Virus record (IMG/VR): IMGVR_UViG_3300022670_000401
Span: 1-38,871 of that record
From: a virus
Taxonomy: Duplodnaviria; Caudoviricetes
DNA: 38,871 nt
Strand: one strand, 5' to 3'
How positions within the stretch are numbered: the stretch's first letter is position 1; each line of letters starts with the position of its first letter. Under the pieces are notes generated by a model. It was not told where the DNA came from. It saw only the letters and a program-made list of their open reading frames with translations, and did not search any database. The position numbers and the translations under genes are program-made. Positions 3,899 to 38,871 of the stretch are shown here, one piece after another.

Positions 3899-4204
3899 CT
3901 ATGAAAAATATACCTGCGTAACTTGGCGCTCTTTTCTTTCCACAAACTTGGCTTCGTCCAAATCATAGGAAAGGTCCATATCCTCCATACAGTCATCACC
4001 GGTGATTATGTAATCAGTGTATTGGATAAACTTGCCTTCGATCTCAGTAACACGCTCTTCAGCTATGTACCGTCGATGCTCATCCTGCTCGCCCTTATGA
4101 ATAACTTTTCCGTAATCCGTTAGGATTTCAGCCAAGCCATTGTCATCAGCGTCCCAACCCTCTTTATTTGCGATGGCCGTTAAAAACTTTCTGATATCAG
4201 TCAT
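3899..4204 (-). CDS. Hypothetical acidic phage protein
   Basis: 101-aa ORF with an AAGGGGA RBS. Confidence 0.7.
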   Translation of the reverse strand: MTDIRKFLTAIANKEGWDADDNGLAEILTDYGKVIHKGEQDEHRRYIAEERVTEIEGKFIQYTDYIITGDDCMEDMDLSYDLDEAKFVERKERQVTQVYFS

Positions 4205-4264: not shown

Positions 4265-4510
4265 TCAACCTACATCTACCCAATCTTCTGCAAGCATATC
4301 GGTTTGAGACGCTAGCCAGGGTACGAGGCTTTTTGGCGCCGCTTCGTTTTCTGTCTGAAGTCCTGTTGTGTCGATGTAAATGTAGGGGCTTGTCATCTTA
4401 CTGTTCACATCAGGACGCTGAATCTTGATAAAAATACCCTTACCATTCCAGCCAGACCGGGCAATCTTACGCCCCGCCTTCAGTTCATGTAATGCTTGTC
4501 CAAAATCCAT
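4265..4510 (-). CDS. DUF2829 family protein (Tad2-like signalling-nucleotide sponge, anti-defence)
   Basis: MDFGQAL..LKAGRKIARSGWNGKG...PWLASQTDMLAEDW is the DUF2829 signature. Confidence 0.85.
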   Translation of the reverse strand: MDFGQALHELKAGRKIARSGWNGKGIFIKIQRPDVNSKMTSPYIYIDTTGLQTENEAAPKSLVPWLASQTDMLAEDWVDVG

Positions 4511-5102: not shown

Positions 5103-5377
5103 TATATTGGTGAATAGTGTTCGCCGGTTGTGCGCGTTACCGTTTTGATTATCCGGCTCTTTACTGCCCGGCCGAAGTTTAATATCACCAGCCGGGCTTC
5201 AAGCAGCTCATCGATAGGTGACAATGACTCAAGCTTAATGTTTTTGTCCTGGCACGGAGCCCAGCGGCCTTCTGAATTTGAATCTTCAACCCAGATATAA
5301 AGCTTAAAATTATTCAGCTTATGAAATATGGGCTTGCCATTTGTCATTGCAAAGCTTTGTGCGTCTTGTGGTTTCAT
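5099..5377 (-). CDS. Hypothetical protein (true start probably MKPQDAQ at 5377)
   Basis: AAGGGA RBS before the ATG at 5377; the longer ORF call overlaps ssb. Confidence 0.55.
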   Translation of the reverse strand: MKPQDAQSFAMTNGKPIFHKLNNFKLYIWVEDSNSEGRWAPCQDKNIKLESLSPIDELLEARLVILNFGRAVKSRIIKTVTRTTGEHYSPIY

Positions 5378-5426
5378 GCTTTTCCCTTTTAATAAGCTAT
5401 AAACATAGCACTGCAAAATTATTCCT

Positions 5427-5971: not shown

Positions 5972-6460
5972 TTATTTAATTGTTAAGCCAGGCTTTGATT
6001 CGCCTATTGTGGCGCCAGGTATTTCAGTGCCGGCTTTAAGTGCAGTCAATGCCGCCTTTTTATCGATTGAATCAACAACCTTAATTGACCTGTATTCGTC
6101 AGGAATCAATGATTCGTCAGTGATTTTTAGGACTGGCTTCGGCTTTGATAGGCTGGCCGATTTAATGCCGCCGCTGATTTTCTTCAGTTTCATGGCTTGC
6201 ATGTTGTAAACCAGGTATTCCTCAAGCTTTGCCTTTGATTTCTCAATTGCTCGCCTGCGATCCGAAAGGCGTTTTTCTTCTGTCTTGAATGCTTCAATGT
6301 CGCCGCTCAAGTTTGCCAGCAAAAACAGAATGCTCTCGCCCTTGCTTTCAAAGTCGCCTTTGATCATATCGATTGTGTCGGCAAGCTGATCTTCTGGCAC
6401 TCCGTCAGAAATCATTGTTTCAATTTCTTTCATGCTTCCTGTGATTTCATACAGCTTCAT
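5972..6460 (-). CDS. Siphovirus Gp157 family protein
   Basis: MKLYEIT, EEKRLSDRRRAIE, DESLIPDEY and IDKKAALTALKAGTEIPGA. Confidence 0.9.
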   Translation of the reverse strand: MKLYEITGSMKEIETMISDGVPEDQLADTIDMIKGDFESKGESILFLLANLSGDIEAFKTEEKRLSDRRRAIEKSKAKLEEYLVYNMQAMKLKKISGGIKSASLSKPKPVLKITDESLIPDEYRSIKVVDSIDKKAALTALKAGTEIPGATIGESKPGLTIK

Positions 6461-7203
6461 GCTTTATCCTCCAGCTTCTTTTTTGCTTCATGGTACGCGG
6501 CGTCCAGTGTCTTTTTCTCTTCCTCTGGCTTTAGCCCAAGGATAGGCGCTTCTCGGTCAATCTTGCCGGATGCCATGCCGTACACGCTGCCAACAGCCTC
6601 CATGTTTGGAACCATTGCAATTGCATCAACCTTGTCAGCAACAAATGCCCGCAACTCTTTAATCTTTAAGGTGTACTGCTCGTCAGCGTGGTCAGCTTTC
6701 TTCAGGTCATTCTCAAGTTTGGCTTCCTGCTTGTATCCATGATCATCAAATTCGCCCATAAATACATCGGAGCAAACACCTAATAGGCTAAGGCACTTTT
6801 TCATTGCATCGGTAACTGATTTTTTAGCGTATTCATGATCAACATAAATCTTTCCGTTGTTGGTCATGTATCGGTATTTAGTGTGGCCATACTGCTGAAA
6901 TGAATTGTCTTTTGTTCCAGCCCACATTTGAATTAAAAGCGTGTGCGTCTTCTCCCAAACAAAAGCGCCGTTATCCTTCATTACCTCATTGTTTAGCATC
7001 ATTGGCTTGGTATCGTCCATACGCTCGCTAATGATTGAGTAGCCCCAGCCTTCGCCTATTGGCCCCAGAACCTCGGTTGCCAGCTTAACCATGTACACGC
7101 CATCCAAACTTGTAAGCTTGTTACCATCAACGTTAGCGGCCTTTGTGTACTTCTCGTCAGTCTTTGGAAACTGATTCCAAATCTTTAATCCCGTGTCGCT
7201 CAT
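6457..7203 (-). CDS. Rad52/Sak-like single-strand annealing recombinase
   Basis: ATEVLGPIGEGWGY and AKKSVTDAMKKCLSLLGVCSDVFMG motifs; start at 7203 after CAACTAAGGGG. Confidence 0.75.
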   Translation of the reverse strand: MSDTGLKIWNQFPKTDEKYTKAANVDGNKLTSLDGVYMVKLATEVLGPIGEGWGYSIISERMDDTKPMMLNNEVMKDNGAFVWEKTHTLLIQMWAGTKDNSFQQYGHTKYRYMTNNGKIYVDHEYAKKSVTDAMKKCLSLLGVCSDVFMGEFDDHGYKQEAKLENDLKKADHADEQYTLKIKELRAFVADKVDAIAMVPNMEAVGSVYGMASGKIDREAPILGLKPEEEKKTLDAAYHEAKKKLEDKA

Positions 7204-7220
7204 ATGTTTCCCCTTAGTTG

Positions 7221-7573: not shown

Positions 7574-7807
7574 ATGGCTGCACCAGCTAAAGAAGAATTT
7601 GAACGCACATCAAGCCTGCCTAAATGCTTCGAATTGGCATTTAAGAAAACCGGCCTTAAGGTAAAGGATTTTGCCTACTTTATGAACATTGATACTGCTC
7701 GAAGCTGCCGGATTCGAAAGCAGGAAAACATGCAGACAGATACAGCACAGAAGGCAGCCGCATTTTTTGGTATGCCTATGTCTGAGTTCATTAAGTTAGG
7801 CGAATAA
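7574..7807 (+). CDS. XRE/Cro-like HTH transcriptional regulator
   Basis: GLKVKDFAYFMNI...TAQKAAAFFGMPMSEFIKLGE; GAGG RBS before the ATG at 7574. Confidence 0.8.
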   Translation: MAAPAKEEFERTSSLPKCFELAFKKTGLKVKDFAYFMNIDTARSCRIRKQENMQTDTAQKAAAFFGMPMSEFIKLGE

Positions 7808-7831
7808 CAATCAGCTTCGGGAAAAGCAACT

Positions 7832-8107
7832 ATGTGTAACTGCATGACAGAACTAAAAGCCAATATTGCGCGTGATTTGGCAGTTGAGCACAATGTGATT
7901 GGCGGTGTAGATGCTCGATGGTCAAACACTAAACGAGTGTCTACCAAGGATAAAATGCAGCGTAACCGGGTTGTAGTGGTGCCGTCAGTATCAATCACTG
8001 CAACCTACTCACAAACAACGGCGCTTGGAAAACCGTTTAAAAATGCTACTGTTGAAAGTATTACGATTAAACCTATTCACTGCATGATCTGTGGGAAAAA
8101 GTTATGA
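7832..8107 (+). CDS. Zn-binding hypothetical phage protein
   Basis: MCNC at the N-terminus and CMICGKK at the C-terminus. Confidence 0.7.
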   Translation: MCNCMTELKANIARDLAVEHNVIGGVDARWSNTKRVSTKDKMQRNRVVVVPSVSITATYSQTTALGKPFKNATVESITIKPIHCMICGKKL

Positions 8108-8298
8108 CACATAAAATTGGGATAGGAACTATAGAATATCTAATGAAGTCCCATGTTCCTTGGCAGCCAGGAAAAATACATGTTGGGCCGGTAGAGCTGT
8201 CTAAGGACGATCTCATTCATAGTCCCGATATACATAAGCTTGCATCAATGATGGCATCACTACGGGGTAAAATAGAAAATATGATTGAGCCCATTTAG
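8104..8298 (+). CDS. Hypothetical protein
   Basis: ATGA-coupled 64-aa ORF. Confidence 0.55.
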   Translation: MTHKIGIGTIEYLMKSHVPWQPGKIHVGPVELSKDDLIHSPDIHKLASMMASLRGKIENMIEPI

Positions 8299-8323
8299 GG
8301 TTATTCTTATTATTAGATTTGAT

Positions 8324-8366
8324 AAAAAAGCCCGGCTGGCTAAGGGATAACCAGTCGGGCTTTTTT
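8324..8366. terminator. Bidirectional intrinsic terminator
   Basis: A6-GCCCGGCTGG-loop-CCAGTCGGGC-T6 between convergent units. Confidence 0.9.
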
Positions 8367-8517
8367 GGGTCTGCGTGGATGAGAACAAACCAAGGGTACT
8401 AATCAACTAAGGGGTGCCCGGTACAATTCCTTGTATCCGGGCCTAGGTCACTTCGGGAAAAGCACATGACACTATCAAGGAGATGTTTTAAATCAAGGAG
8501 ACAGGGGCATAACCTGT
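8324..8517 (-). ncRNA. Candidate ~190-nt sRNA with multiple anti-Shine-Dalgarno motifs
   Basis: Promoter TTGTGT-N17-TATTAT at 8522-8550; four hairpins (U-G pairs and a GGAA loop favour the minus strand); terminator; CU-rich loops and linkers. Confidence 0.65.
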
Positions 8518-8550
8518 GGTGATAATAACCTGTAATTATTGGCGACACAA

Positions 8551-8886
8551 CTATGCGCCGTAATGCGCTTTCTCTTTTCTTCCGCTTGCCTGCTTTGTCC
8601 GCCATATATCACAGCGCCTTTCAGCGATAATCATGCGGTATTTAAGCTCTTCACTTTTCTCAGTGGATGCCCTCAAGCCCTGCAGTAGCTCAAGGTATTC
8701 TGGGTGTGAGTATGCGTATGCCTCCCGCTCCTGGCCGGTCTTTATGCCGCCGGCCTGAGCCTCAACCATCAAAATAGCTTTCTTACTCTTGCGAAATTCG
8801 GATAAATACACCGTCTCAGCCTTTGCGCTGGCGTACTCAGATACGTGTTCTCGCCAGGCGTGTATCAGCTTTTCAATGTCTTCCAT
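8551..8886 (-). CDS. Conserved helical phage protein (possibly UvsY-like)
   Basis: EREAYAYSHPEYLELLQGL...IWRTKQA pattern. Confidence 0.7.
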   Translation of the reverse strand: MEDIEKLIHAWREHVSEYASAKAETVYLSEFRKSKKAILMVEAQAGGIKTGQEREAYAYSHPEYLELLQGLRASTEKSEELKYRMIIAERRCDIWRTKQASGRKEKAHYGA

Positions 8887-9918: not shown

Positions 9919-10110
9919 TTACCAAGTAAAAATATTTCTCAAAATAGGATCTTCGCATTCATGATGGTGCCTCATTGATATTTTGCCATCATCAAGATTA
10001 ACCACTCTTACGCCTTTCTCATCATCAAAAGTGTTGTCGTGAAGTTCCAGAACGCAAGCCCTGAACGAGCTTTATCCATGCGGAAATGCGTCTAATATTT
10101 GGCCTTTCAT
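9919..10110 (-). pseudogene. 63-codon gene interrupted by an in-frame TAA at 10072-10074
   Basis: RBS TAAGGGGAAGGGA-ATG at 10110; 50 more sense codons follow the TAA and end at the next RBS. Confidence 0.4.
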
Positions 10111-10257
10111 TCCCTTCCCCTTAATTGGATTTTTGCCCGAATTTTCAAAATGCTGATTGACAATGTAGGTAACCGCCTTATTCAGCGACCACATTCTTTC
10201 GTCTGCAAACTTCTGCAGCTTTTCTTTTTGCTTATCGCTAGGTCTATATGATATCAA
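10072..10257 (-). CDS. Ribbon-helix-helix (Arc/CopG-like) DNA-binding protein
   Basis: ISYRPSDKQKEKLQKFADERMWSLNKAVTYIV fits the RHH pattern; AAGGAG RBS before a TTG start. Confidence 0.75.
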   Translation of the reverse strand: MISYRPSDKQKEKLQKFADERMWSLNKAVTYIVNQHFENSGKNPIKGKGMKGQILDAFPHG

Positions 10258-12719: not shown

Positions 12720-12848
12720 ATGTTCAACAATATAGAAATCCGCACAAACTCAGACAGATGGCCATCATTTAGACTTGTGGTTGATGGGGCTATGGTTTCG
12801 TTTGGATCGTTTGGCCCTAGTGGCGTTAACTTTTGGTATGTTGATTAA
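12720..12848 (+). CDS. 42-aa peptide (MFNNIEIRTNSDRWPSFRLVVDG...), not in the ORF track
   Basis: First ORF after the promoter; ACTAAGGGGA RBS. Confidence 0.5.
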   Translation: MFNNIEIRTNSDRWPSFRLVVDGAMVSFGSFGPSGVNFWYVD

Positions 12849-12880: not shown

Positions 12881-13312
12881 ATGAGTGTGGAAGCAATAAA
12901 AGAGTTTAGCGGTGATTACCGTTGGTTGAGTAATTTTTGGTTATGCCCGATATGGGTGGGGGAGCATGTTTATCCATCCACAGAAAACGCATATCAAGCA
13001 GCCAAATACCCAAAGTCACAACGACAGCAATTTACAGCATGTTCTCCAGCTATGGCTAAACAGCTTGGCCAGAGAATACAGCTCCCGAAAAACTGGGATA
13101 CAGAAAAACTAGCTGTTATGCGCAAAATCACATATCAGAAGTTCAGGAAAAACACGTTCAATTGCGGCCTACTTACTGGAACTGTTGGTGCCGAGATAAT
13201 CGAAGGCAATACCTGGGGTGATACGTTTTGGGGTGTATGTGATGGTACCGGCGATAACAATCTCGGAAAGATATTGATGGAAGTTAGAGCTGAATTGCTC
13301 GAAAGTTTTTAG
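12881..13312 (+). CDS. NADAR (YbiA-like) family protein
   Basis: WLSNFW, YPSTENAYQAAK and IIEGNTWGDTFWGV...GDNNLGKILMEVR. Confidence 0.93.
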   Translation: MSVEAIKEFSGDYRWLSNFWLCPIWVGEHVYPSTENAYQAAKYPKSQRQQFTACSPAMAKQLGQRIQLPKNWDTEKLAVMRKITYQKFRKNTFNCGLLTGTVGAEIIEGNTWGDTFWGVCDGTGDNNLGKILMEVRAELLESF

Positions 13313-25655: not shown

Positions 25656-25823
25656 TTATTTCCCTCTATATCCTGAAGCGTAAGCCGCCTCACCTTGTTT
25701 GCCTGCCTTTTTACGGGCAGAATTTCGGCTAGAGGCATCTCCGGCCGTGTATCGGTATTTCTTACCTTCGCCGCCCCACTGCATGAACGAGCCTTTACTG
25801 TCTTTTCCTGAGCTTACCGGCAT
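25656..25823 (-). CDS. 55-aa basic protein (MPVSSGKDSKGSFMQWGGEGKKYRYTAG...QGEAAYASGYRGK), not in the ORF track
   Basis: Translated by hand; TAATG coupling to the upstream gene. Confidence 0.7.
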   Translation of the reverse strand: MPVSSGKDSKGSFMQWGGEGKKYRYTAGDASSRNSARKKAGKQGEAAYASGYRGK

Positions 25824-28800
25824 TACAGCTCCCTATCGCCTGACCTATTTTTGAATATTACAGTTCCAGCGATAACACCCGCCTCAAGATCTGTAACCGT
25901 TTCTTTAACCAGTATTGTACATATGTAAGATATATCTCTGGTGGTTAACAACTCGGGATTTTCACCTTCAAAGCCGGCCTCCGCATCCGCCACATTTGCG
26001 TAAGTAGTAGTGCCGTAATAGATGATAATGTCCTCAGTCCCGCATGCCTGAAAAACGCGTTGAGCACTAAAACGATTAGTTGGTACAGTCACTATCGTTC
26101 CGCCACTATTGAATTTACTGGGATCAATAAATGGAGTAGCAGAGTTAGATATAAATGCGTCAATAACAAAACTCCCACCTGAATCAGCATGGACAAGGAA
26201 TAGGTTGCCTGTCGTACCGGTGAAGGCAACTTTCGCCCTCGCCTCGGTTTCGCATAAATTTGGCGAGTTAGGGTCCGGAAGCATCCCCCTACCAATTTGA
26301 TGATGGCTACCCGGGGTCACGCCAATAGATAAATCGGCTCCGCCAGGGGATAAAATAGATCCCTTTGTTTTATGGCCTCCGCCATTAATTAATTCCGCTT
26401 GTCCATCAACAGACCCAGTATAAGCAACAACCGGAGTGAACACAGCAACGGTGATAACTCCCGCAGCCATGACTGACTTACCGATAAACGTTTCACCGGT
26501 CACTGAGAATGACGTTGGCTCGTCGGTTCTGAATTCATGCACGCCCTGATTATTGATATACGTATTTATTACTTGATCACCGCCACCGGTTATTACGTGA
26601 TCTATTTGTGGTAAATCAAAGAATGTCTGTTTAGGAAGTCTAGTGTTTAAAGATCTATCTACTATCACTGATTTAAGAGTCTCAACCCTAAATGTCGTTG
26701 CATTTAGAATTGACATTCCTTTAGGGCCACCATTATCGCCAGTGGATATTAAGCCAGAGTGATCATAGATTATGTCTTCTTCGGATTCAAATTCGCCTAG
26801 GTATACATTCCCAACTTCCAAGGTGTTAATAAAGCTAATTGGAGCTCTGGAAATTACATCGATTACAAGCTCATTGAGTCCGTTAAACAGCGACTGCGGG
26901 GCAGCGGTGTTTTCAGTTTTTAATGTTAACTGGGTTCCTGCGCTCCCACCTATTAAATCTAACCGGTTACCTAGATTACTAGGATTGCCGTCAGGAACGA
27001 CCACAGTGTGGTTTCTCTTTCCTTCTGGTCTAAATATTTGTCTTATGTCTGCCGCCATAGTTCCTGCAGATAGTATTTTTACTGAACCCTCCTCGTAAAT
27101 GGTTACACCAAAACCCACGAAGTAGAATGTGGTGGACCCTGAGGAGGACGAGTTCGCAACCGATACTTCGTCATTCACGGCGTTATTTGAGGACACAATG
27201 CCGCCAACTACTACCTTCTTATCGTTCACATATAAAATAGCCGCCCCGAAACTAAGCCCGGAATCGGGTGACGGATCGCCAAAAACCTCCCAATCGAAAT
27301 AGGTATCTATTGGAACTAACGGTACCCCAGCAGTGCCATCGAGGGCTATAGTCGCCTGACCATCCAATCTAATCGTCGTATTTGTTCCATCTTCGCTAAT
27401 AAAGATACCCACTCGGCTCTGGATAGAGGATATGCGGGGGTCGTTGGTGCCCGAGAACCCCATTCCTGAAAATATCGATTGAGTATTAATATCCTCAGTG
27501 ATCCGACACCTAACACCCCTGAACGAGAACCCGTTAATTAGGTTATTCCCCCAGTCCCCCGCCGATAGCGCTATCCTTGATTTTGTTACATCCAAATCAC
27601 CCGGGATATTATATTTAACGACATCCGTTTCAACGCCGAAAACGGTATCTGTAATTAGCGTTATAGTACCTGCGCCTGTCTCGGTATCAGTCCAGCCCTG
27701 CGCTGACGGCAAACCTAATTCAGCGTCAAACATCGCGTCCTTAGAGGCGAATGTTTCAGATGCTATAATCGGAACATCTGAAGCATGAGCCAATTGATGG
27801 AATGTGATAGGCGACATATCGCCCTCGCCGTGTTGCGGCGTTCCATCAGCTGCCGAACGCCAAACCGATGGAATGACTCTTGTTATGGTGCCCGAGTCCG
27901 TGCCGGCCACAAATTGATCAAGGGTAAAAGTCTCTAGCATTGCCCCGGTACCTACACCGCGCACTACAAGGTCCGTGCCTATGTGCGAACCAACTTCATA
28001 GAGGCCGTTATTCTGTTTAAAGCCACGAAATAAGACGAACTGATTTGTTGTGAAAATTCCAGACCCGACTGTAGTGACCGAAGGATTGCTGACCGCGTCT
28101 ACACCGGGGATAAATACGCCGCTAGCCACTGTATCGTTAAGCCCGTCAGCCACGTATATATCCACGCGATCTACGTTAACAGGTGTCGTTGAGGTCTGGT
28201 CAGCGTTTTGAATTACGACCTGTGTATCGAGCAATAACTTCTCAGCATCGTTAACCAGCGTGTCGACTTCTAAACCTTCCTGGATCAGCTGAGTAAGAAA
28301 AGGGATATCCGTGACCGTACCCTTGAGACTCATCGAGTCCGCTTTAAGCTCAACATCTAACTGCTGGCCTGCCCGTAATTGAAATGTAGACAAGCCTATA
28401 TTGAATACGCCCGGCGTACTGTCTTCAACACTGACAAAATCAACAATGTTATCACCAGTTATGAAGGGCAAGCCTGGATTTGCAGCAACTTCTTCAGGTG
28501 TAACCGCATTAAAAGCGGCCTCATTTGGTATAAATCGGATCACTACTCCGCTGGCATTATCCGTGATTTTCGCCACAACATTAGCCATTGGAGCATCTGC
28601 GCGAAATGTGACCTGATTGGTCTGGCGAACCTTAGGGGCCTGAACACCGCCTATAATGACGAAATTTAACGGGTTGGTGGTTATTACCTGGGTGTCGTCA
28701 GTCTGCAGAGGGTTAAATACCTGAGTCTTAAGATCAACATCCTTAGACGCGAATGATCCAGTTTCATCAAAATCTGTGGTTTTAACATAGCCATGGGTAC

Positions 28801-29050
28801 CATCAACATTATTGCTTATGGCTAGCTGCTTAGATGCTTCGGACAGTGTTGATGCCGGCCCAAGATCTAAAGACCCCGAACCAACGTCAGCACCATTATC
28901 AAATTTCGCCTTACCAGTTGAGGGGTTGACCGTCGCGCCAGCATAAATCAATTTACCAGTCGCATCAGCCTTAGCCATTTGGCCTTCGGTTAATGTGGTA
29001 AATAGAGGGTCAGAACCACCGTTAAAACCAATGCCTGGGGGATATGGCAT
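25823..29050 (-). CDS. 1075-aa multi-domain beta-rich structural protein (fibre/appendage-like)
   Basis: G/T/S/V/D-rich; located in the morphogenesis operon. Confidence 0.7.
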   Translation of the reverse strand: MPYPPGIGFNGGSDPLFTTLTEGQMAKADATGKLIYAGATVNPSTGKAKFDNGADVGSGSLDLGPASTLSEASKQLAISNNVDGTHGYVKTTDFDETGSFASKDVDLKTQVFNPLQTDDTQVITTNPLNFVIIGGVQAPKVRQTNQVTFRADAPMANVVAKITDNASGVVIRFIPNEAAFNAVTPEEVAANPGLPFITGDNIVDFVSVEDSTPGVFNIGLSTFQLRAGQQLDVELKADSMSLKGTVTDIPFLTQLIQEGLEVDTLVNDAEKLLLDTQVVIQNADQTSTTPVNVDRVDIYVADGLNDTVASGVFIPGVDAVSNPSVTTVGSGIFTTNQFVLFRGFKQNNGLYEVGSHIGTDLVVRGVGTGAMLETFTLDQFVAGTDSGTITRVIPSVWRSAADGTPQHGEGDMSPITFHQLAHASDVPIIASETFASKDAMFDAELGLPSAQGWTDTETGAGTITLITDTVFGVETDVVKYNIPGDLDVTKSRIALSAGDWGNNLINGFSFRGVRCRITEDINTQSIFSGMGFSGTNDPRISSIQSRVGIFISEDGTNTTIRLDGQATIALDGTAGVPLVPIDTYFDWEVFGDPSPDSGLSFGAAILYVNDKKVVVGGIVSSNNAVNDEVSVANSSSSGSTTFYFVGFGVTIYEEGSVKILSAGTMAADIRQIFRPEGKRNHTVVVPDGNPSNLGNRLDLIGGSAGTQLTLKTENTAAPQSLFNGLNELVIDVISRAPISFINTLEVGNVYLGEFESEEDIIYDHSGLISTGDNGGPKGMSILNATTFRVETLKSVIVDRSLNTRLPKQTFFDLPQIDHVITGGGDQVINTYINNQGVHEFRTDEPTSFSVTGETFIGKSVMAAGVITVAVFTPVVAYTGSVDGQAELINGGGHKTKGSILSPGGADLSIGVTPGSHHQIGRGMLPDPNSPNLCETEARAKVAFTGTTGNLFLVHADSGGSFVIDAFISNSATPFIDPSKFNSGGTIVTVPTNRFSAQRVFQACGTEDIIIYYGTTTYANVADAEAGFEGENPELLTTRDISYICTILVKETVTDLEAGVIAGTVIFKNRSGDREL

Positions 29051-38609: not shown

Positions 38610-38727
38610 ATTGTTTATGATATTTTCCCTACCCTAATAATTGATTGACAGAACTTGAGGCAATCCACATTGCAACGGCAAACCCCACCAACCCACCAAG
38701 GATGAAATTAGCCATTCCCTTTACCCC

Positions 38728-38871
38728 TTATTATGCACCCCTTTATTAGAGGTGCCTTGGTGTTGTTGTAACCATGAATCTTGGGCGCTCAACAAGCATT
38801 TTTATTTCGCCCAAATGCCTGATTAATTGCTTTCTACAAGGATCGTCAATAAAAACTCTTTCGGCCATAGC
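38728..38871. repeat. Terminal direct repeat, copy 2
   Basis: Identical to 1-144. Confidence 0.97.

Follow-up and report, generated by a model that had tools for sequence, protein, structure and literature searches.

We identified, between two convergent operons of a marine P22-like podovirus, a conserved and uncatalogued element that, judged from its sequence, is a candidate phage small RNA (sRNA) with two seeds rather than the eight first proposed. We favour, with moderate confidence, its reading as a trans-acting sRNA whose two seeds are complementary to extended early ribosome-binding sites (RBSs) and which would block translation of the phage's own early genes. The window (the whole stretch of DNA analysed) spans 38,871 bases and constitutes a complete virus record carrying direct terminal repeats, and its portal, capsid, Ad3/Hc3, and ejection genes identify the phage as a P22-like podovirus. 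A search of sequencing runs found the record in a marine sediment run, which may be its source, and listed no RNA run containing it. The nearest named capsids are those of Vibrio phages (69%) and a protein from an Oleispira MAG is 81% identical, a kinship which makes the host probably a marine gammaproteobacterium. A PHROG scan of the 73 ORFs of the window gave no match to an integrase or CI family. The element lies between a leftward operon, which ends at 8551, and a rightward operon (genes at 7574, 7832, and 8104), which ends at 8298, and it is kept in the same slot in three related phage contigs (L224, L225, and L296, the last belonging to record G001) and in two short sample-run contigs, with most relatives carrying a form of 130 nt. 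The features are as follows:

5375–5386, minus: RBS of an early gene (start 5377) for a 92-aa product; complementary to seed 1 over 10 nt
6457–7203, minus: Sak/Rad52-like recombination gene (phrog_7838; Pfam Rad52_Rad22 below cut-off)
7210–7220, minus: RBS of the recombination gene; 11/11 complement of seed 2
7574–7807, plus: 77-aa gene opening the rightward early operon; probable Cro-like HTH
7814–7828, plus: best predicted target, the RBS GCTTCGGGAAAAGCA of the 91-aa gene; 14-nt Watson-Crick match, with the 13-mer kept in 3/3 genomes
7832–8107, plus: 91-aa protein gene (phrog_7033), directly after the HTH gene; four invariant Cys
8324–8516, minus: predicted sRNA of about 193 nt, its start placed from the -10 box; 128–131 nt in relatives
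8324–8366, both strands: bidirectional intrinsic terminator between the convergent operons; UCCCU loop on the minus strand; same place as the last hairpin of the slot in relatives
8368–8391, minus: hairpin 3 with a CAUCC loop; absent from relatives
8399–8605, minus: 68-aa shadow ORF overlapping the 111-aa frame; no family match
8404–8417, minus: seed 2, GCACCCCUUAGUUG, unpaired; relatives have CCCUUUAGUUG or CCCUAUGUUG
8416–8442, minus: hairpin 2, a sequence-variable spacer stem; 2 compensatory pairs among 3 relatives
8447–8470, minus: hairpin 1 with seed 1, GCUUUUCCCGAAG (8463–8451); UCCC in the predicted loop; 13-mer identical in 4/4 sequences
8474–8516, minus: 5' extension found in this phage only, with two UCUCCUUGAU copies (8501–8492 and 8483–8474); no stable fold
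8522–8550, minus: sigma70-like promoter; -35 TTGTGT (8550–8545), 17-nt spacer, -10 TATTAT (8527–8522)
8551–8886, minus: 111-aa conserved phage gene upstream of the sRNA promoter; NinB takes its place in G001

Complementarity to early ribosome-binding sites

The longest match between the RNA and a start region was 14 nt in the window (69 starts), 14 nt in G001 (61 starts), and 13 nt in L224 (14 starts), while matches this long arose in 8, 7, and 4 of 3000 shuffles, respectively, and in all three it fell on the same 91-aa gene, whose proteins are 46–49% identical. Seed 1 forms a perfect complement of 13–14 nt with the RBS of this gene in each genome. In the window the match is UGCUUUUCCCGAAG, 14 nt against the RBS of the gene at 7832, and it was missed by the original prediction, which had listed the UUCCC motif with no link to this best target. 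The pair adjoining seed 1 changes in step, being U:A in the window, U:G in L224, and C:G in G001, which amounts to one intermolecular compensatory change only. When starts were ranked by predicted binding, using a home-made ungapped-helix model with accessibility, the 91-aa gene came first in the window, G001, and L224 (-17.1, -18.0, and -15.6 kcal). As to what this gene encodes, a protein atlas gave hypothetical proteins only (four representatives, two of them full-length), and no function was assignable from a structure comparison with a model of pLDDT 68 (best Z 4.7). The 77-aa gene that precedes it has no family match of its own, and its syntenic homologs in G001 and L224 match HTH regulator families.

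The shorter RBS matches claimed earlier all hold, with 11/11 to the gene starting at 7203, 10/10 to that at 2358, 9/9 to those at 12720 and 3885, and 8/8 between the terminator loop and the genes at 607 and 7465. Most seed-2 matches in the window are to the common TAAGGGG Shine-Dalgarno (SD) sequence, and TAAGGG[G/A] is the usual early SD of this phage (16/46 early vs 1/23 late starts), so many of these matches concern one shared motif.

Gene starts were called by script, omitting calls that scored under 9, and edited by hand (three dropped and two added in the window; for G001 and L224, one corrected start and one discarded ORF each). With early/late borders of our own, motifs picked after inspection, and p-values uncorrected, predicted binding was stronger for early than for late starts both in the window (46 vs 23, p 1.7e-4) and in G001 (35 vs 25, p 1.2e-4), while a control with a 16S tail sequence gave no such early/late difference (p 0.12 and 0.40). 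The early leader consensus is covered in its 3' half by seed 1 and in its 5' half by seed 2. In G001, the complement of seed 1, GGG[A/G]AAAGC, occurs 14 times; 13 of these copies lie at early starts and the remaining one is the back of the seed itself, so that the motif precedes 13/36 early vs 0/25 late genes (p 0.0004); the window has it at 2/46 early starts only. The part of this motif that is not SD, the spacer AA[A/G]GC, stands before 20/36 early vs 1/25 late genes in G001 and 8/46 vs 0/23 in the window, and in Vibrio phage 5P1a the counts are 2/35 and 0/18. Matches of at least 8 nt to the 78-nt core of the window RNA were found at 11/46 early and 0/23 late starts, and at 0/53 starts of Vibrio phage 5P1a.

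Comparison with shuffled controls gave a divided result for the whole 193-nt RNA: matches of at least 8 nt, at 14 of the 69 starts, did not significantly exceed the null of 7.2 (p 0.093), but those of 9 and 10 nt did (p 0.027 and 0.013). The L224 RNA also scores on the outgroup phage 5P1a (3/53 at 9 nt, p 0.013). Upon ranking by anti-RBS matches genome-wide, the element came first of 7078 windows in G001 and third in the window genome at 9-mers, falling to fifth and fourth at 8-mers. The two regions above it in the window at 9-mers, 10001–10130 and 38621–38750, correspond to the backs of RBS-like motifs that precede very short ORFs. Vibrio phage 5P1a has no anti-RBS window by this ranking (best 4 genes).

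The strongest competing explanation, though one we consider unlikely, is a single-target antisense RNA like c4 or sar that represses the 91-aa gene only, with the other matches arising only because the RBSs resemble one another for some separate reason. The predicted lead of the 91-aa gene over the next target (3.8, 4.8, and 1.7 kcal in the window, G001, and L224) is what such an RNA would give, as is the fact that this gene alone has the full 13-mer in all three genomes. However, a single target does not account for the early-gene bias of the AA[A/G]GC spacer in G001, and the second conserved seed does not pair with the 91-aa gene.

The predicted RNA, its strand, and its conservation

The original prediction described about eight anti-SD motifs displayed along the RNA. 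All the listed CU-rich motifs are present, including the two UCUCCUUGAU copies and CCCCUUAGUUG at 8414–8404, but their number is not beyond chance: 7 C-rich motifs were counted, where 3000 dinucleotide shuffles average 6.8 (p 0.58). C runs are nonetheless abundant here, as only 29 of 3868 genome windows reach 7 such motifs. Of the motifs listed, only two, the UUCCC loop and CCCCUUAGUUG, are shared by the three relatives, whose full sequences lack both UCUCCUUGAU repeats, ACCCUUG, and CAUCC, and the motif in the terminator loop costs 5.4 kcal to open. Complementarity to the phage's early RBSs is thus supported, and an eight-fold multivalent design is not. Given that the repeats, ACCCUUG, and CAUCC are missing from relatives, the 193-nt form probably derives by extension from the 130-nt core, and the additional CU-rich repeats seen in this phage were likely acquired later and widen generic SD pairing.

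These generic motifs would be the working parts of a multivalent silencer of host mRNAs, an explanation we regard as improbable. C[C/U]CCUU does occur three times in the element, where shuffles give 0.6 (p 0.015), and early and late SDs alike are predicted to pair with the UCUCCUUGAU repeat; yet these repeats are absent from the three relatives, the total motif count does not rise above shuffles, and the conserved seeds reach into phage-specific flanks.

The predicted fold agrees in part with the one first described. The GCCCGG/CCGGGC and GGUUUGU/GCAGACC hairpins are present, but the 5' ACAGG/CCUGU hairpin is seen in some suboptimal folds only, the 5' part having no stable predicted fold, and the GUCA/UGAC hairpin lies 2.8 kcal above the minimum. 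In the minimum-energy fold of the window RNA the regions of seed 1 and seed 2 are partly paired with each other. Opening the 9-nt seed 1 costs 1.8–2.2 kcal in the fold model, and the opening cost in hairpin 1 of the relatives is 2.8 kcal. In the three relatives all 33 pairs are kept, with 5 compensatory, a result reached by 7 of 500 shuffles for a structure derived from the same three sequences. The best match of an RNA model of these relatives outside its training loci was the window element itself (8477–8387), and it was weak (16 bits, E 0.058). The RNA family is not in Rfam: the window element gave no match at cut-off, c4 was not among its matches up to E 10, and the best relevant weak match was to sX13, over the 3' hairpins (21.2 bits against a cut-off of 50, E 0.24).

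Several lines of evidence place the unit on the minus strand. The claimed TTGTGT-17-TATTAT promoter and the claimed terminator (8366–8324) are both present, the promoter and layout are kept in relatives, and the fold z is -4.1 on the minus strand vs -2.7 on the plus strand, which together support a structured minus-strand unit with its own promoter. A consensus scanner listed neither this promoter nor the terminator, and instead listed a plus-strand promoter-like site at 8285–8313. The overlapping 68-aa ORF, whose conservation as a protein would speak against an RNA, is not conserved, and the codon changes fit the 111-aa frame. Of 13 codons that differ in a related contig, 12 carry silent changes in that frame, and 4/4 changed codons are non-silent in the 68-aa frame; we therefore rejected this ORF, which also has no family match, as a real protein. 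A plus-strand mini-ORF behind the 13-mer was likewise rejected, having 18 codons in the window and no counterpart in G001. We also set aside a role in antitermination of the nut/boxA type, which the element presumably resembles, as no sense gene lies downstream of the terminator.

The motif might alternatively be a protein-binding site, either as DNA or as plus-strand RNA acting as a decoy for CsrA/RsmA or a phage repressor, with the copy in the slot serving as decoy or operator. The plus strand of the window has five GGA and three ANGGA, the promoter-like site at 8285–8313, and a folding energy like that of the minus strand. Even so, we give this explanation little weight, as the original prediction did in preferring the minus strand over a CsrA/RsmA reading: ANGGA is found 0 times in all three relatives, the conserved promoter and U-tail have the opposite orientation, the relatives fold 5–11 kcal better on the sense strand, and a plus-strand transcript would meet the terminator first. 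Sponges of the CsrB/RsmZ type carry many conserved GGA motifs in loops on the transcribed strand; with plus-strand counts of 5, 2, 3, and 1 for GGA and 3, 0, 0, and 0 for ANGGA (window, G001, L224, and L225), such a sponge was rejected.

The promoter (TTG, a 17-nt spacer, and TATTAT) is present in 4/4 full sequences, namely the window, L224, L225, and L296, three of which are close to each other. Its spacer diverges, and it is conserved behind two unrelated upstream genes, in a podovirus and in a long-tailed phage. Common to the four sequences are GCUUUUCCCGAAG, a variable hairpin, a CCC..GUUGAU linker, and the terminator; seed 1 is identical in all of them while its flanks diverge, and two seeds only are conserved. 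L224 and L225, in which the element stands right after the stop codon, were found among seven metagenome loci of an upstream-protein scan, two of which carry it. L296, from a long-tailed phage with NinB upstream, was the one homolog among 44 viral loci matching the seed pattern. The two short contigs hold an L225-like form, with 16 differences over 255 bases and 11 over 151.

Other searches gave no relatives within their scope. Neither the element nor the target operon had a DNA match in a cultured-phage collection, against which the slot of a relative matched by its abiF stretch only. An exact search with the hairpin-2 pattern gave 0 matches, single-protein scans with the recombinase and the capsid gave no relatives, and the double-repeat pattern gave none that was related among 140 loci of an estimated 360, mostly collagen-like repeats. 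None of 120 genome matches to the seed pattern (of about 160 estimated) was related by tblastx, and in more distant records the 13-mer was found in 0/49 and the RNA model in 0/41.

The conservation described above bears on a further and still less probable explanation, that the region has no function and is simply where the leftward operon ends at its 3' side, with a terminator accompanied by duplicated RBS remnants or a recombination repeat. The region does directly follow a gene, and the 13-mer is a direct DNA repeat (7815–7827 and 8451–8463), but the promoter, the 13-mer, and the fold are exactly conserved while upstream genes, spacers, and cargo are exchanged.

Two repeated sequences were noted in and around the promoter, namely CAATAA inside the promoter spacer in 4/4 sequences (8536–8541, minus strand, in the window, and in the relatives) and ACAGGTTA at 8533–8526 and 8517–8510 in the window; both are possible regulator sites. 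A hairpin with an AT-rich tail follows the 8104–8298 gene on the plus strand (8288–8322) and is kept in relatives with an altered loop; it is the probable first terminator of the rightward operon.

Proposed mechanism and comparison with known RNAs

Under the sRNA reading, the RNA would be made by host polymerase from its conserved sigma70-like promoter, possibly with an extra supply by read-through from the leftward operon, and its accumulation would act as a delayed off-switch for early genes. Pairing would begin where the UCCC loop and the unpaired CCC linker contact G-rich early leaders, and would then zip into the flanks. Seed 1 (GCUUUUCCCGAAG), presented in a loop, would cover the SD and the spacer 3' of it, with its fullest pairing on the 91-aa gene behind the HTH gene, and seed 2 (CCC-UUAGUUG), unpaired, would cover the SD and its 5' flank. 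In the infected cell the paired RNA would block 30S entry, most tightly on the 91-aa gene.

A bolder reading, which we put forward tentatively and hold to be possible rather than probable, is that the early genes carry a private address, CAACUAAGGG[G/A]AAAGC, whose halves are read by the two seeds of one sRNA; this would be a timer made of RNA alone, shutting off an entire temporal class of genes at translation and sparing late and most host genes. Early-gene shutoff in phages is mostly explained by proteins and nucleases. If true, an sRNA reading a shared tag on early leaders would constitute a class-wide translational switch, and would account for unrelated early genes sharing bases outside the SD. 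Our search of the openly accessible literature (main texts) gave no description of this RNA, its motif, or a phage sRNA reading a shared early RBS tag, and the available text of a review has phage antisense RNAs acting on single genes or host RNAs (PMC12197685).

With its own promoter and terminator, no conserved ORF, and a conserved seed, the element falls by sequence into the class of trans-acting base-pairing sRNAs. By analogy it would work like P1 c4, sX13, or the cuckoo RNAs, while belonging to none of them. In c4 of phages P1/P7 (RF01695), as described in the available text of the sources, short loops pair with the ribosome-binding region of a phage mRNA, blocking its translation (PMC12197685, PMC8198154, PMC2864571), and the RNA, part of the c4-icd-ant operon, controls an antirepressor for lysogeny (PMC12197685, PMC8198154). 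The element is like c4 in having loop sequences predicted to be complementary to phage RBS regions. Unlike c4, however, it matches no Rfam model, in the window or in relatives; it lies not in the operon of its target but on the opposite strand, convergent with and downstream of its best target; and it has many predicted early targets in a phage whose PHROG scan gave no integrase.

In the part of the literature available on sX13 of Xanthomonas (RF02232), a chromosomal regulator of host genes, stem-loops with C-rich motifs act on G-rich motifs at or near RBSs, and reporters show the repression to be Hfq-independent (PMC3771888). The UCCC loop and CCC linker of the element similarly face GGG[A/G] leaders by prediction, but its sX13 score lies far under the cut-off, and it has seeds extending into a private RBS flank, which that account of sX13 does not include (PMC3771888). 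The cuckoo, or CcsR, RNAs of Alphaproteobacteria carry anti-SD-like motifs on hairpins and are proposed, in the available text, to occlude RBSs (PMC4615179). Unlike these RNAs, which have two to four hairpins each with a CCUCCUCCC loop, the element has two different seeds that match the phage's own early leaders, and CCUCCUCCC is absent from the sequences read.

The sar RNA of P22 and the OOP and aQ RNAs of lambda are encoded in cis. Among RNAs of phages and their satellites, these three lower translation of viral genes, each acting on one gene (PMC12197685), and the satellite-encoded SviR of PLE acts on satellite and helper-phage mRNAs (10.1101/2022.04.08.487710); in the available text of these sources, none of the four is said to recognise an RBS tag common to a temporal class of genes.

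Neighbouring elements and other cargo

The slot of one relative holds further non-coding cargo. An abiF RNA motif was found above the Rfam cut-off of 37 in L296 of G001 (4006–4040, plus strand, 38.4 bits), and another in Acinetobacter phage Acj61 (GU911519.1; 796–832 of locus L433, 58 bits). We found no Abi_2 gene in G001 (rated 50% complete) or in the Acj61 record. According to the available part of one report, abiF motifs neutralise the AbiF toxin in trans (10.1101/2025.04.15.648962), and by analogy those of G001 and Acj61 may be phage-borne antitoxin mimics. The letters of the G001 motif recur at the end of a run X3 contig. Least probable of the explanations weighed is that the sRNA unit is itself an anti-defence RNA mimicking an antitoxin or other defence RNA, like the abiF motif of G001 that lies 110 nt downstream of the sRNA, above cut-off and with no Abi_2 gene found in the record, since the window element has no Rfam match and the conserved parts of the RNA are exact complements of phage RBSs.

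Downstream of the sRNA terminator, L224 (2205–2415), L225 (700–915), and L296 (4050–4268) have a second conserved non-coding element, about 200 nt long. It contains a TGAGAGGG...CACCTGACC motif twice, matches no Rfam family, and is absent from the window; a 382-nt run X1 contig has 80 bases in its place. In Vibrio phage 5P1a, a convergent intergenic region (10066–10323 of L083) folds at -89.6 kcal on the minus strand vs -68.7 kcal on the plus strand and was not ranked as anti-RBS; we regard it as a candidate ncRNA in a cultured phage.

The window phage also carries anti-defence cargo of its own, with a Tad2-like anti-Thoeris domain (4265–4510) and a NADAR domain (12881–13312), both above the Pfam cut-off. 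Its virion module includes a 1075-aa ORF (25823–29050, minus strand) with no PHROG match and no Pfam match above cut-off, and Vibrio phage 5P1a has a 1051-aa gene at a similar position. At the terminal repeat junction lies an unlisted 28-aa hydrophobic ORF (38629–38715, minus strand) behind a doubled RBS-like motif. Finally, a strong early-type RBS and an ATG at 10109–10125 (minus strand), inside the 3' end of the ORF at 10072–10257, open an ORF of 12 codons only, which may be a peptide gene or a remnant.
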